From Porticoccaceae bacterium (GTDB lineage: Bacteria > Pseudomonadota > Gammaproteobacteria > Pseudomonadales > Porticoccaceae): a DNA stretch of 64,000 nt. The notes under the pieces are model-generated. The model did not search any database, was not told the origin of the DNA, and saw nothing but the letters and a program-made list of their open reading frames with translations. A program made the translations under genes and the position numbers. Where the stretch lies: the NCBI GenBank assembly GCA_041395745.1, contig JAWKZV010000001.1, positions 305,127 through 369,126 of the forward strand, read 5' to 3'. Of this stretch, positions 22,617-31,835 are shown piece after piece (positions within the stretch are counted from its first letter, which is position 1; each line of letters opens with the position of its first letter).

Positions 22617-22952
22617 CTAGTTGCGGGTATTTTCCGTGGCTTCCAGCACTTGTCCGGTAAACGCAATTTTTATCGATAAGGATTGTTTTGTCTCACTATT
22701 GGTTACATGTAGTACATAGAATTCTTTCCCTACAGTTACCACTTTAATGTCACTGGGCTGGACGGACTTCCAGCTGGCATCCAGTTTTCCCGCCTGATGG
22801 CCCATATCTTTAAACGTCATCTGTTGAACGGTTTTAGCGGCAACCTGTTTGGCCCAAGTTTCACTGATGGTCCCGTGGTCGCCGTGTGCCAACGCGAGGC
22901 CGGCAGGGGTGAACAGGCTGAGCAAAAGTAGTGTACGCAGAAACAGTTTCAC
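22617..22952 (-). CDS. Small secreted protein, DUF6488-like, mature N-terminus HGDHG
   Basis: GGAG RBS before GTG 22952; Sec signal ending ALA; QQMTFKDMG...GKLDASWKS resembles DUF6488 proteins (recalled, not searched). Confidence 0.7.
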   Translation of the reverse strand: MKLFLRTLLLLSLFTPAGLALAHGDHGTISETWAKQVAAKTVQQMTFKDMGHQAGKLDASWKSVQPSDIKVVTVGKEFYVLHVTNSETKQSLSIKIAFTGQVLEATENTRN

Positions 22953-22970
22953 GGTGATCTCCGGCAAGGC

Positions 22971-23498
22971 TCAGGGTTTTAGCCCGATAATCTGGTAGCG
23001 GCCATTAATAATGAGCTGAATGGCGACAGGCTGGTCACCGGGATTGTTCCAGTACCAGCCATGGGAGCCGTTGAAAGGGGCGGTAAAACTGCCTTTCATG
23101 GCGCCCAGAGTAGCAATGGCATAGCTTTCAAAGTAACCGCTGGTATCGCCCTCGGGCTCGCCGTGAAGATCGAAGTACAGAGGTGCTCCGTCGGTTATCC
23201 ATTCATAGGTCAGCTTGTCATAGCGGTTCATTTGCAATTTGTATTCGATACCCTTGTGGGCGGGTACGGTGATCTCAATGACTTGTTGCGAAGTCATCTC
23301 GTCAGGCATGGGTTGAGGGGCCAGCGGCGCTGCTTCCGCAGCTTCGGCCAACAGGGTCAGGCCGAGTTTCTGTCCGACCCCGGTAGGGTCGATATTGTAT
23401 TCCGCAGGCAGAATAAACAGGACTAGAGCGATCGCGGCCAGCACGATGGCCGCCAGTGATGCCTTGATCAGGGTGGTCAGACTTACGTGGTGTTCCAT
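22971..23498 (-). CDS. Conserved hypothetical membrane-anchored protein
   Basis: One N-terminal TM (...FILPAEYNIDPTGVG), beta-rich C-domain with FDLHGEP and HGWYW; co-oriented and tightly packed in the efflux unit. ATG 23498 or GTG 23510. Confidence 0.75.
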   Translation of the reverse strand: MEHHVSLTTLIKASLAAIVLAAIALVLFILPAEYNIDPTGVGQKLGLTLLAEAAEAAPLAPQPMPDEMTSQQVIEITVPAHKGIEYKLQMNRYDKLTYEWITDGAPLYFDLHGEPEGDTSGYFESYAIATLGAMKGSFTAPFNGSHGWYWNNPGDQPVAIQLIINGRYQIIGLKP

Positions 23499-23515
23499 GT
23501 TGTCTCTCACTGTGA

Positions 23516-28582
<5,067 letters not shown>

Positions 28583-28610
28583 AGTGATATCTCTCACGGT
28601 AGCGGCGTCC

Positions 28611-29927
28611 TTAGAATGTCAGTGTTGTGCCGGTGAGGCGTTGCAATTCGATGTGCTGCAGGTGGATAGCCTCGAAGGCGCTCAGCAGATCCTGTTGCGC
28701 CCCCAGCTTTTTGTGGAGGATGGCCGTCCACTGCTGATAATCCAGCCTGCCGCTCTCATAGGCCCGGGTGGCCTGTGCCTGAGCGTTGTTCAGGGCGGGG
28801 ATAATTCTTTCCCGCAGGGTTTCTATCACGTGTTGGCTGTGTTTGATTTCCTGTAGCAGGACGTAAAGCTGCGTATCCAGGCGGCGCTGGAGCACCTCGG
28901 ATTCGCTGGCATACTCAGCCTGTTTGGCCCGCAGGCTTCTGACTTTTCCGACACTGCTGCGGTCTTCCCCCAGGGGGACTGAAACGCCGGCCACCATGCC
29001 AAAATCATCGCTGGCCTCAAAACGGCGAATGCCCGCCGAAAACTGCCATTGCGGCCTGGCCTCGATTCGCGCCAGTTCTATTTCCGATTCCACAATACGC
29101 TGCTGTGTGGCCAGCAGGGCCAGCGCGGGGTTTTGCCTGAGTTGTTCGAATTGCTGTTCGACGTTGCCCAGCGCCGGAACGTTAAACAGCTCGCCCAGCA
29201 GGCGAAATTCATCGCGCTCGCCGCCCCATTGTGCGCTCAGCCGGTAGCGTGTTGAGCTCAGCATGTGTTGCAGGTCTTCAGTTTCCAGTTCCCGTTGGGC
29301 CAACTCCACTTCAGCCTGGAGGCGTTCAAATTCGGGGCTGTTGCCGGCTTCGATGCGCTTCCCAATGGCGGCGACGGTGTTGCGGGCCTGTTGTGCGGCT
29401 TGCTGTGCGAGTTTTATACGCTGTTCTTCGGCCAGTGCCTGAATAAACAGCCGGGCTGTCTCGGCGGCCAGATTAAGTGCTTCGACCTGCTGCTGGATAT
29501 CGACCTGGCTAGCGGAAGCCCGAGCCGCTTGAATACGGCTGTCGATGCGGGCACCTTGTGCTACCCAACTGATGGAGAGGGTGGACTGAGCGCTGCCAAA
29601 ATCGCTGTAGTCACCGCCGCCGGCGAAATCCTCGACCATGAAACCAACACTGGGGCGCTCACCCACGCCGACCTGTTCGATCAGACCCTGGTAGGCTTCG
29701 CGCCGGTGCGGAAAAACCCCAAGCTGAGGGTGTTGTTCCAGGGTCAGTTGAACCGCTTGATCCAGCGATAACACGGCGCCCTGTTCAGGTGTGCTCTGCG
29801 CATTGACCGATGAAGCTGAGAGACATGCCCCAGCGATGACCAGCGCGGGGAGGGCAGGCAGTAGCAATTGCCTTAAAAGCCGATTGGTAATCGGTGTTTT
29901 ATGCAAAACCATATGGCGTAGGTTCAT
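28611..29927 (-). CDS. czcC: TolC-family outer membrane factor, CzcC type
   Basis: Signal peptide, LSLDQAVQLTLEQHP, helical repeats, GVSVPL, AYESGRLDY; first gene of the C-B-A order. Confidence 0.88.
   Translation of the reverse strand: MNLRHMVLHKTPITNRLLRQLLLPALPALVIAGACLSASSVNAQSTPEQGAVLSLDQAVQLTLEQHPQLGVFPHRREAYQGLIEQVGVGERPSVGFMVEDFAGGGDYSDFGSAQSTLSISWVAQGARIDSRIQAARASASQVDIQQQVEALNLAAETARLFIQALAEEQRIKLAQQAAQQARNTVAAIGKRIEAGNSPEFERLQAEVELAQRELETEDLQHMLSSTRYRLSAQWGGERDEFRLLGELFNVPALGNVEQQFEQLRQNPALALLATQQRIVESEIELARIEARPQWQFSAGIRRFEASDDFGMVAGVSVPLGEDRSSVGKVRSLRAKQAEYASESEVLQRRLDTQLYVLLQEIKHSQHVIETLRERIIPALNNAQAQATRAYESGRLDYQQWTAILHKKLGAQQDLLSAFEAIHLQHIELQRLTGTTLTF
29875..29899. promoter_or_regulatory. 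Candidate second operator (CCGAT-N5-ATCGG) in the czcC 5' end
   Basis: AAAAGCCGATTGGTAATCGGTGTTT matches the reverse complement of 31431-31455 at 20/25 positions. Confidence 0.5.
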
Positions 29928-29939
29928 TCATCAGCCCTT

Positions 29940-29984
29940 TAGTTCAGAAGGAAATAGTTCAGTAGGAAATAGTTCAGTAGAAAA
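29940..29984. repeat. 3 x 15-bp tandem repeat in the M56-czcC intergenic region
   Basis: TAGTTCAGAAGGAAA / TAGTTCAGTAGGAAA / TAGTTCAGTAGAAAA. Confidence 0.92.
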
Positions 29985-30998
29985 TTAATGGGAAAAAAAC
30001 GCTTCGATCAGGTGGTGCAGGGTATCGACCCCCACCGCTGACAGGATCGCAGTCAACGCCATGATCGACAGACAGGAAATCCAGGGGAACGTTCGAAACG
30101 CTTGCGGTGTAACCAGTGCCCTGACGCGCAGATCGACATCGTCCGCAATGAAGTAGTTCACGACCAGCGGATTCCCATGGCCCGTCTGGCTGCCCGTGAA
30201 TACGCGCTGGATTCTGGCCGCCTTGACCAGGGTTTGGGCAATATCCAGTTTGCAGTGGGAGTCGCTGACCACGGCGTCGGCCAATTGCTCGGCCGCCATC
30301 GAGAATGCACGGTTCAGACGGCGGGCCACCGGTCTCGGGTAAAGGGACGCGCACAGGGCAAACAGCAATTTTTTCCGGATGTCCCTGTGTTTGATGTGGG
30401 CCCGCTCGTGATCGAGGATGATATCCAGCTCGGTTTCGGAAACCTGCTCGATCAGCCCGGTGGTAACGTAACATTTCGGATTCGAGAGGCCGGCGGCAAA
30501 TGCCGACGGGGTTTTCGATTCAAGCACGACAATATCCCGCCCGATTTCCCAGCGCCGGGCTTTTTCCCGGGTCCGGCTTCCGCTGCTTCCCATGGAGAGA
30601 TGCGTGAGTGAATCCAGGGCATGTAAATGGCGCGCGGCGTTCAGGCCCTTGCTGGTCAGCACATAAGCGATGCCCAGCATAAACATCAACAGGGTCGCGG
30701 CGTGCCAACTTTCCAGATAAAACACATACGGATGGTGCCAGTGGGCCAGTTGGCCCAGCCAGGAGGAATTTGCCCCATGAAACAGGGAGGGCAGGAAAAC
30801 CGACACGCAGATGATGCTGACCCCCCAGGGGGCAGCGACAAACAACCACAACAGCTTTTTTTGCGTGGCGGCAGAAAACTGCGCGATATGGCGAGTCATC
30901 AACGGCCACACTGATGCCAGCAGAAGCGTGGCCAGCAGCAGACCCATGAGTGCGATACTGAGCAGGTTGAGAATAATCGCGGGTTCATTAATCAACAT
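29985..30998 (-). CDS. M56 family zinc metalloprotease (BlaR1/MecR1-like, no beta-lactam sensor domain)
   Basis: Three N-terminal TM helices, SAFAAGLSNPKCYVTTGL, HERAH (HEXXH), EQLAD, fourth TM; 337 aa with no penicillin-binding domain. Start overlaps the repressor stop. Confidence 0.9.
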   Translation of the reverse strand: MLINEPAIILNLLSIALMGLLLATLLLASVWPLMTRHIAQFSAATQKKLLWLFVAAPWGVSIICVSVFLPSLFHGANSSWLGQLAHWHHPYVFYLESWHAATLLMFMLGIAYVLTSKGLNAARHLHALDSLTHLSMGSSGSRTREKARRWEIGRDIVVLESKTPSAFAAGLSNPKCYVTTGLIEQVSETELDIILDHERAHIKHRDIRKKLLFALCASLYPRPVARRLNRAFSMAAEQLADAVVSDSHCKLDIAQTLVKAARIQRVFTGSQTGHGNPLVVNYFIADDVDLRVRALVTPQAFRTFPWISCLSIMALTAILSAVGVDTLHHLIEAFFSH

Positions 30999-31386
30999 TA
31001 TTGGCGATTTCCTGGCCGCGTAGTTGACGCTGCTGCTGAATCATTTTTTCCAGTTGAGACAGTTTTTCGTCATCCAGTCCGGCTGAGACGGAGGAGAAGG
31101 CGGCAATCAGGCTGTCTTCATCTTCGTTGATGAAATCAACAGTGACTTCCTGAATCAGTTGGGCAATCAGTTCCTCTCTGCCGATCTTGGCGCGGTAATA
31201 GTAGGCGTGTCCCTGTTTGTGACGGGTCAGTAGCTCTTTTTTGAACAGCCTGTCCAGGGTGCTCTGAATGGTATTCAGGGTGCCTCCCCGGTGTTTGGTC
31301 AGCGCCCCGTGCACCTGCTTGGCATCGGCCTCCGGCGTTTCCCACAGGTATTGCAGAACCTGCTTTTCTAATTCACCCAGCATCAT
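30988..31386 (-). CDS. BlaI/MecI/CopY family winged-helix repressor
   Basis: LGELEKQVLQYLW, NTIQSTLDRLFKKELL, RHKQGHAYYY; no CopY-type C-terminal Cys motif. Confidence 0.92.
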   Translation of the reverse strand: MMLGELEKQVLQYLWETPEADAKQVHGALTKHRGGTLNTIQSTLDRLFKKELLTRHKQGHAYYYRAKIGREELIAQLIQEVTVDFINEDEDSLIAAFSSVSAGLDDEKLSQLEKMIQQQRQLRGQEIANNVD

Positions 31387-31418: not shown

Positions 31419-31455
31419 ATACTAGCACACAAAAACCGATGAGCAATCGGTTTTG
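31419..31455 (-). promoter_or_regulatory. Putative sigma70 promoter and overlapping operator for the blaI-like operon
   Basis: Minus strand TTGCTC-N16-TAGTAT with TG extended -10; AAAACCGAT-GAGCA-ATCGGTTTT inverted repeat (31432-31454) covers the -35 and lies between the divergent genes. Confidence 0.6.
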
Positions 31456-31472: not shown

Positions 31473-31835
31473 ATGGGTATTGGCTGGTTGGTAACGAAAT
31501 ATTTAACGACAGCATTTGTCGTGGTGGTGGTATCCGAGGTGGCAAAACGCAGCGACAGGTTGGGCGCCCTGGTGGCGGCTTTACCCCTGGTCACGATTCT
31601 GGCGCTCATTTGGCTCCATGTCGAAACCGGGTCGGCGCCGAAGGTCTCCAACCACGCATGGTATACCTTCTGGTATGTGATCCCAACGTTACCGATGTTT
31701 CTGATTTTTCCGTCACTACTGCCGCGTCTGGGATTCTGGGGCTCCCTGCTTGCCAGCGCATTAATTACCATCACCTGTTTCTGGCTGTTCGCCCTGTTGG
31801 TCAAGCAATTTGGCATTGATCTGGACGTTCTATAA
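31473..31835 (+). CDS. DUF3147-like small membrane protein
   Basis: Four TM helices, VSEVAKRSDRLGALVAALPL, HAWYTFWYVIPTLPMFL; divergent from the repressor. Confidence 0.75.
   Translation: MGIGWLVTKYLTTAFVVVVVSEVAKRSDRLGALVAALPLVTILALIWLHVETGSAPKVSNHAWYTFWYVIPTLPMFLIFPSLLPRLGFWGSLLASALITITCFWLFALLVKQFGIDLDVL

Follow-up and report, generated by a model that had tools for sequence, protein, structure and literature searches.

What signal does a membrane protease of the BlaR1 type respond to when it possesses no penicillin-binding domain? The question is raised by a gene in a 64,000-nucleotide stretch of the genome of a Porticoccaceae bacterium (assembly GCA_041395745.1, contig JAWKZV010000001.1, positions 305,127 to 369,126 of the forward strand), which we call the window and to which all coordinates refer unless otherwise stated. 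The gene (29985..30998, minus strand) encodes a sensor-less, BlaR1-like M56/M48 membrane zinc protease of 337 residues with four predicted transmembrane (TM) helices, and it lies between the gene of a BlaI-type repressor and those of a CzcCBA-type heavy-metal efflux pump. We propose, at a probability of roughly 60%, that the loop between TM2 and TM3 and the C-terminal tail of this protease jointly bind a periplasmic divalent metal, that TM3 moves as a consequence, and that the protease then cuts the repressor and releases the operon. Here, we describe the conservation and predicted topology of the two histidine clusters on which this proposal is built, the repressor and efflux genes with which they are associated, and the alternative explanations that have to be weighed.

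Two histidine clusters in a sensor-less BlaR1-like protease

The protease matches two Pfam families, Peptidase_M48 (4.7e-12, 46.6 bits against a cut-off of 20.3) and Peptidase_M56, the BlaR1 peptidase family (2.3e-9, 37.3 bits against a gathering cut-off of 31). A profile search of 1.84 billion representatives yielded 150 proteins at E < 1e-30, and the 130 full-length members of this wider family were aligned. Both the catalytic HERAH motif (H197, E198 and H201; 30396..30410, minus strand) and E237 with D241 (30276..30290, minus strand) are invariant in all 130; the latter pair constitutes the ExxxD third zinc ligand motif of M56/gluzincins (bioRxiv 10.64898/2026.08.03.742534). The NCBIfam model blaR1_generic (NF000326) reaches only 15.9 bits against a cut-off of 400 and aligns with residues 147-220, the catalytic core, alone. 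The protein stops 15 residues after TM4, leaving no C-terminal penicillin-binding (SxxK) sensor domain, in keeping with a first-pass annotation of the locus, made from the sequence alone, which had regarded that domain as replaced. Because this domain is missing, and because neither a β-lactamase nor a PBP2a gene lies downstream, we rejected identity with a true BlaR1 or MecR1 and assign the protein to Pfam M56 outside these two groups. It is the sole M56 gene of the 2.5-Mb genome, and its partner is the sole BlaI-family gene there.

The first-pass annotation had drawn attention to the motifs AHWHHP and WHAA between TM2 and TM3 and to a histidine-containing tail after TM4, and both are confirmed in the 337-residue open reading frame. 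The loop (L2, residues 73-99; 30702..30782, minus strand), which is predicted to be periplasmic, includes the stretch GQLAHWHHPYVFYLESWHAATLL; in it A85-H86-W87-H88-H89-P90 and W98-H99-A100-A101 (30702-30743), together with F93 and S97, are found between the hydrophobic segments 48-72 and 100-118. The tail (residues 323-337; 29988..30032, minus strand), with DTLHHLIEAFFSH at its end, follows the hydrophobic segment 303-322, is likewise predicted to be periplasmic and to prolong the TM4 helix, and carries D325-T-L-H328-H329-L-I-E332-A-F-F-S-H337 (29988-30026), so that the reading frame ends in VGVDTLHHLIEAFFSH. The spacing of D325, H328, H329 and E332 in this helix is i, i+3, i+4, i+7, and therefore most of these residues can share one helix face. 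Histidine is enriched on the predicted outer side of the membrane, where 8 of the 17 histidines fall within 49 residues, as against 9 in the remaining 288 (Fisher p = 0.001).

Conservation of these residues was examined at two depths. From a search of 5.8 billion proteins we obtained 65 full-length relatives, whose hosts are without exception marine Gammaproteobacteria, among them Porticoccus, Haliea, Halieaceae, Glaciecola and Paraneptunicella, and 27 of them, ranging in identity from 94% to 32%, were aligned. H86, W87, H88, H89, F93, S97, W98 and H99 of the loop are invariant in this alignment, as are D325, H328, H329, E332 and H337 of the tail. In the wider set of 130 representatives H86 is kept in 121, H89 in 126, H328 in 127, H329 in 126 and a Glu or Asp at position 332 in 130; adjacent loop positions are conserved at just 11-39%. 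H86, H89, H328, H329 and E332 are conserved about as well as the catalytic HExxH, and the conservation of the histidines among homologues, on which the first-pass reading depended, is thereby borne out in both sets. That reading had not separated two groups of residues which the wider alignment distinguishes: the five just named recur in distant relatives with Cys- and His-rich loops, whereas H88, H99 (with W98), D325 and H337 are typical of the window's subfamily only. H337, for example, is retained in 75 of 85 representatives of the HWHH type and in 9 of 45 others, a raw association that is confounded by descent. The pump encoded in the HWHH-type loci L023-L034 (our locus labels) is 82-88% identical to that of the window and the protease 43-69%; the regulator protease thus diverges much faster than its pump, yet its putative ligand residues are unchanged. 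The family is sparse: of 400 gammaproteobacterial genomes sampled, 8 had a member at E <= 1e-20.

In the remoter members the loop is exchanged for D-H-C...H-x-H-L-C-x-x-H, almost every one of these loops having two Cys, and the HHxxE tail is kept. The shared core of this HHxxE-tail class comprises two loop His, two tail His and one Glu; the accessory residues are extra His in the window protein and two Cys plus His in these relatives. Eight Cys/His-loop proteins encoded in whole genomes (L016-L020, L048, L049 and L053) follow a BlaI-type gene and stand beside a heavy-metal pump of the resistance-nodulation-division (RND) superfamily, and the three pumps of such loci that were scanned against NCBIfam all exceed the TIGR00914 cut-off. 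These relatives may sense a different metal.

The distribution of charged residues provides a prediction of topology. Averaged over the 27 aligned sequences, the number of Lys plus Arg is 0.04 for the N-terminus, 2.3 for L1, 0.7 for L2, 21.7 for L3 with the protease domain and 0.0 for the tail; no tail in any of the 27 contains Lys or Arg, and neither does L2 of the window protein. This is a positive-inside pattern, from which an N-out, L2-out and tail-out arrangement is predicted. An AlphaFold2 model calculated from the alignment (predicted local distance difference test score, pLDDT, 85.6; predicted template-modelling score, pTM, 0.84) consists of four long helices, of which the TM4 helix (306-336) runs unbroken into the tail. 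It also refines the first-pass placement of the second loop motif, as W98-H99 is not in mid-loop but forms the first turn of the TM3 helix (98-138). The closest solved folds are the cryo-electron microscopy structures of Staphylococcus aureus BlaR1, 8EXT, 8EXP and 8EXQ (E about 1e-4, TM-score 0.42-0.45). Hydropathy, the charge pattern, the helices of the model and the fold match together predict four TM helices and a cytoplasmic protease domain between TM3 and TM4, as in BlaR1. The protease domain must be cytoplasmic because its substrate binds DNA. L2 and the tail are predicted to be periplasmic because of the charge pattern, because of the match to the BlaR1 fold, and because each is one membrane pass away from the cytoplasmic protease domain; the periplasmic orientation that the first-pass annotation had assumed for both histidine groups is thus also the predicted one. 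Residues 2-3 of the conserved N-terminus (30990-30995) and loop residues 92-93 (30720-30725) are both assigned as strand or bridge by DSSP in the model. These two pairs may bond to each other, which would pack the periplasmic N-terminus on the histidine loop.

Repressor, candidate operator and efflux operon

The gene preceding that of the protease (30988..31386, minus strand) encodes a winged-helix repressor of the BlaI/CopY family (132 residues; Pfam Penicillinase_R, 2e-23); the end of this gene and the beginning of the protease gene share 11 nt. The repressor contains no Cys, and it scores 53.4 bits with the CopY_TcrY model (TIGR02698), whose cut-off is 121.95; on both grounds it lacks the CxCx4CxC metal site of CopY. 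No conserved Cys or His was found across 31 partner repressors. The repressor was therefore rejected as the metal sensor, having zero Cys and no conserved His.

The bond predicted to be cut in the repressor is A96-F97 (31096..31101, minus strand), which aligns with N101-F102 of S. aureus BlaI (1sd4), the surrounding sequences being LIAAFSS in the window repressor and LVLNFAK in BlaI. F97 is retained in at least 90% of the 31 partner repressors. We take F102 of S. aureus BlaI to be the residue that follows the cleaved N101-F102 bond. BlaR1 cleaves itself before a Phe (S283-F284) and cleaves BlaI directly (PMC9834060).

A palindrome, AAAACCGAT-N5-ATCGGTTTT (31432..31454), is situated about 60 bp upstream of the repressor gene. 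Its core occurs twice in the window, as against 0.05 occurrences expected, and the palindrome was found at the equivalent position in 19 of the 19 loci checked, down to a protease identity of 32% and including plasmids. By these properties it is a good operator candidate. The second copy of the core is located at 29880-29894, inside the first codons of czcC.

The protease gene is followed on the minus strand by the genes of a complete efflux pump. The first encodes a CzcC-type outer-membrane factor (28611..29927; Pfam OEP, 1.9e-20), the second a CzcB-type periplasmic adaptor (27347..28597; Pfam HlyD_3 and HlyD_D23, with CzcB/NccB and IhpB as the top NCBIfam models) and the third a CzcA-type heavy-metal RND pump of the divalent-cation type (24201..27335; TIGR00914, 1428.5 bits against a cut-off of 701.45). 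Only a short interval separates the stop of the protease gene from czcC, and it is filled by 3.1 tandem copies of a 15-bp unit, TAGTTCAGTAGGAAA (29940-29985). The TM4 motif of CzcA matches that of the zinc pump ZneA, and the positions of the CusA Met triad (M573/M623/M672) are occupied by H, V and E. A CusA-type Cu(I)/Ag(I) pump was rejected, as the Met triad is absent and the TM4 motif is not A-x-G-x3-D-A-A; the ZneA-like motif and the missing triad together make this a pump of the divalent-cation type, not of the Cu(I)/Ag(I) type. The presence of HupE/UreJ, described below, and of a Ni-resistant Shewanella host hints weakly at Ni or Co. The genes flanking the operon include neither the two-component systems CzcRS or CusRS nor CnrYXH.

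Three smaller genes, also on the minus strand, trail the pump. They encode a HupE/UreJ_2 membrane protein (23516..24277; Pfam HupE_UreJ_2, 9e-56), the true start of which is probably internal and overlaps the czcA stop, a conserved hypothetical protein of 179 residues without a Pfam match (22971..23510), and, as the last gene of the unit, a DUF6488 protein (22617..22967; Pfam DUF6488, 1.3e-29). The 179-residue gene is collinear in loci L001, L003, L023, L034, L050 and L052 and on a plasmid of Shewanella sp. ANA-3. On the opposite side of the repressor, a divergent gene on the plus strand (31473..31835) shares the operator region and encodes a DUF3147-like membrane protein of 120 residues; it has no Pfam match, but its product is 70% identical to an annotated DUF3147 protein at the equivalent position on the ANA-3 plasmid, and it is probably the ninth gene of the module. 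Elsewhere in the genome there is a second intact heavy-metal RND cluster (G000:C1:883500-886625), accompanied by two cation diffusion facilitator (CDF) transporters and a MerR-family regulator, and a third RND gene (G000:C1:909757-912851) that is broken by several stop codons.

Wherever an HWHH-type locus extends far enough to be judged, its genes are collinear in the order repressor, protease, CzcC, CzcB, CzcA. This holds for L001, L003, L004, L023-L034, L050 and L052 and for two annotated plasmids, whereas L035 breaks off within the M56 gene. Loci in which the protease is only 32-34% identical to that of the window (Paraneptunicella aestuarii, two metagenome contigs and one Logan contig beside a Tn3 transposase) keep the order repressor, protease, CzcC, CzcB, CzcA, HupE. 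Additionally, 13 HWHH-type loci recovered from 185,579 species genomes, with hosts in Haliea, Halieaceae, Porticoccus, Congregibacter, Chromatocurvus, Luminiphilus and Sessilibacter, have the same collinear genes as far as their contigs reach.

The annotation of the conjugative Shewanella sp. ANA-3 plasmid (NC_008573.1) shows all eight genes together with the divergent DUF3147 gene, as does that of a Salmonella enterica IncC plasmid (NZ_CP100354.1), with the motifs AHWHH or VHWHH, SWH and VDSLHHIIETFFTH intact on both. Homologues of the M56 protease were further found on plasmids of S. decolorationis Ni1-3, S. putrefaciens, S. xiamenensis and S. baltica, as well as on plasmids of Pseudoalteromonas donghaensis and Glaciecola. 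S. decolorationis Ni1-3 is strongly resistant to nickel and copper (PMC8473976). Because the whole operon resides on conjugative plasmids, the module is mobile; transposases of the Tn3 and other types adjoin it in loci L003 and L004.

A putative periplasmic metal switch and its alternatives

In the mechanism that we propose, a small periplasmic metal site would take the place of the penicillin-binding sensor. This site would be composed of the C-terminal half of the TM2-TM3 loop (H86, H88, H89 and W98-H99) and the helical tail (D325, H328, H329, E332 and H337). Upon a rise in the periplasmic concentration of a divalent metal (Zn, Co, Cd or Ni), binding would tie the loop to the tail, and the change would be relayed from the loop through TM3 to the cytoplasmic protease domain. 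The signal could cross the membrane in this manner because the loop leads directly into TM3 and TM3 into the protease domain. The activated protease would, in turn, cut the Cys-free BlaI-type repressor, probably before F97, and the repressor would leave its AAAACCGAT-N5-ATCGGTTTT operator, permitting transcription of blaI-M56-czcCBA-hupE. A precedent for the relay exists in BlaR1, in which the C-terminal part of the corresponding loop (residues 87-97) is lodged in the partner subunit, in a groove of the sensor domain after TM4; displacement of this segment bends helix α3, the connection between the loop and the protease domain (PMC9834060). The clusters of the window protein coincide with these two sites: one falls in the final 14 residues of the loop, and the other follows TM4. 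The first-pass annotation had likewise interpreted the two clusters as a metal site in place of the penicillin-binding domain. The parts of that interpretation which can be computed have held, that is, the conservation of the residues, their predicted periplasmic location, the absence of the sensor domain and the context of a divalent-metal efflux operon; from these we infer the remainder, namely metal binding, its occurrence at one joint site, activation by binding, and the site of cleavage.

Several observations weigh against this mechanism or limit its support. The first part of L2 (residues 71-90) has a pLDDT of only 61-68 in the AlphaFold2 model. An analysis of co-evolution between the loop (H86, H88, H99 and the Cys pair) and the tail (D325 and H337), using a tree built without those columns, was underpowered and not significant: supported branches offered just 2-4 independent pairs, and p was 0.5 or higher. 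Loops of the HWHH type all occur with pumps bearing the TM4 motif DFG-DGA, and Cys/His-type loops occur with at least four TM4 motifs, DFG-DGA among them; because the latter adjoin several motifs, no simple code links loop chemistry to pump class. In three relatives (L036, L037 and L051) no pump adjoins the protease-repressor pair. The whole pump of the window is about equidistant from ZneA (592 bits) and CusA (576 bits), a comparison that does not discriminate between metals. Finally, H86, H89, H328, H329 and E332 are kept across relatives beside different pump subtypes, and the retention of these five core residues whatever the pump would fit a site with a constitutive structural function as well.

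Such a function forms the basis of the first alternative, which we consider unlikely. The His and Glu residues would constitutively serve structure or dimerisation by keeping TM3, TM4 and the N-terminus together, whether or not a metal is permanently bound, and the signal would be sensed elsewhere. W87, F93 and W98 are conserved aromatics, which suggests that they pack at the membrane interface, and BlaR1 is a domain-swapped dimer that is stabilised around this very region (PMC9834060). A structural site, however, leaves unexplained why the loop switches between a His-only and a Cys/His composition as the fold is kept, and the system would then have no sensor at all, given that no ligand residues are conserved in the repressor.

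The genes that trail the pump raise the second alternative, that the histidine site, rather than reading free metal, docks a metal-loaded periplasmic partner encoded in the operon (the DUF6488 protein, the 179-residue protein, CzcB or HupE) and that the resulting complex triggers proteolysis. Small envelope proteins that are co-conserved with the pump follow it in many loci, including those on the Shewanella plasmids, and the corresponding loop of BlaR1 acts through protein-protein contact (PMC9834060). The accessory genes are not obligatory, however, because HupE, the 179-residue protein and DUF6488 are absent from loci L024-L030 and L033, in which the histidine motifs are kept, and we regard docking as a rather improbable trigger.

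We give still less credence to cytoplasmic sensing through occupancy of the catalytic HExxH...E site, according to which the protease would remain under-metallated until cytoplasmic Zn or Co rises and the periplasmic histidines would serve some other end. A catalytic site of this kind is by definition a metal site, and sensing in the cytoplasm is employed in this organism, in which the second pump cluster stands beside a MerR-type regulator. Such a mechanism nevertheless assigns no role to eight invariant periplasmic ligand residues. Moreover, RND pumps of the CzcA type are generally held to remove metal from the periplasm, which fits a periplasmic sensor. Lastly, it is very improbable that the clusters sense a non-metal signal such as periplasmic pH or haem: His titrates near neutral pH and His pairs can ligate haem, but at all loci the conserved partners are genes for metal efflux, the clusters occupy a loop and an exposed helix where haem b would usually be held within TM helices, and the Cys added in relatives points to the binding of soft metals.

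Relation to known systems and implications

The proposed metal switch can be compared with several characterised regulators. Two-component systems such as CzcRS and CusRS, and the CnrYXH system, sense periplasmic metal and switch on heavy-metal efflux (HME) RND pumps; they perform the same task as the window pair by an unrelated logic, phosphorelay in the former and sigma-factor release in the latter. The window protease resembles BlaR1 and MecR1 of S. aureus and Bacillus licheniformis in its M56 fold, its four TM helices, its HExxH...ExxxD motifs and its neighbouring repressor of the BlaI family, in which a Phe is conserved at the cleavage position, but it has no penicillin-binding domain, and the genes presumably under control are czcCBA rather than those of a β-lactamase or PBP2a. 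The copper repressors CopY and TcrY of the Firmicutes share the winged-helix family fold of the window repressor, which itself lacks the metal site of CopY; according to the available text of a 2024 review of metallostasis, CopY senses copper through its own CxCx4CxC motif, and CopY is the only repressor of this type covered in that text (PMC11672702).

The closest parallel is PetP/PetR (Slr0241/Slr0240) of Synechocystis sp. PCC 6803. As in the window, the gene of a sensor-less M48/M56 protease with four TM helices overlaps that of a BlaI/CopY-type repressor devoid of the CopY Cys motif, our comparison with PetP being based on its published description. PetP degrades PetR upon the addition of copper, and its authors propose two conserved Met in a 14-residue TM2-TM3 loop as the copper ligands (bioRxiv 10.1101/2020.07.31.226407). 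The loop of the window protein, in contrast, comprises 27 residues with four His and no Met, and the protein possesses a His/Glu tail after TM4, a feature not mentioned in the PetP paper. PetRP controls the switch between cytochrome c6 and plastocyanin, whereas the window pair heads an efflux pump. What sets the window pair apart from PetP/PetR is thus the use of His in place of Met as proposed ligands, a second proposed ligand segment after TM4 and an efflux pump as the presumed target.

Sensor-less M56 proteases paired with BlaI-type regulators have also been described as PvmS/PvmR of Pseudomonas aeruginosa, Rv1845c/Rv1846c of Mycobacterium tuberculosis and MAB_2414c of Mycobacterium abscessus, and the signal for these BlaR homologues is stated to be unknown (bioRxiv 10.64898/2026.08.03.742534). 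The window protease has the same architecture but is linked to metal-efflux genes, a link that has not been reported for PvmS or the mycobacterial proteins. Our literature searches found no description of the control of czc genes by a BlaI/M56 pair, and a paper on Co/Ni amplification in Shewanella makes no mention of these genes. A nickel-resistant Shewanella in which blaR1 neighbours genes for Ni/Co resistance is cited in a review as an instance of antibiotic-metal co-location (PMC11253441). Given the plasmid matches described above, that blaR1 is most likely the pump's own regulator and not a β-lactam gene. Resistome surveys can count such genes as the antibiotic-resistance gene blaR1.

More broadly, and tentatively, sensor-less M56 proteases with an HHxxE tail might represent a widespread, hitherto undescribed class of periplasmic metal sensor, although we think it somewhat doubtful that the idea holds in full. 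The five-residue core would be common to the class and the accessory ligands would set the metal, which would cross-link loop to tail, possibly across a domain-swapped dimer, and act through the loop-TM3 relay known from BlaR1; the β-lactam sensor of BlaR1 would then be a later addition to an older metal-gated switch.

If the proposed mechanism is true, it would constitute a third route to periplasmic metal sensing for heavy-metal pumps, besides two-component systems and pairs of extracytoplasmic function (ECF) sigma factors and anti-sigma factors, and one that depends on a very small and readable ligand motif. The presence of the operon in the cultured Shewanella sp. ANA-3 makes the model directly testable. 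Furthermore, it offers a concrete hypothesis on the signal for other sensor-less BlaR proteins, including PetP, PvmS of P. aeruginosa and the mycobacterial homologues.

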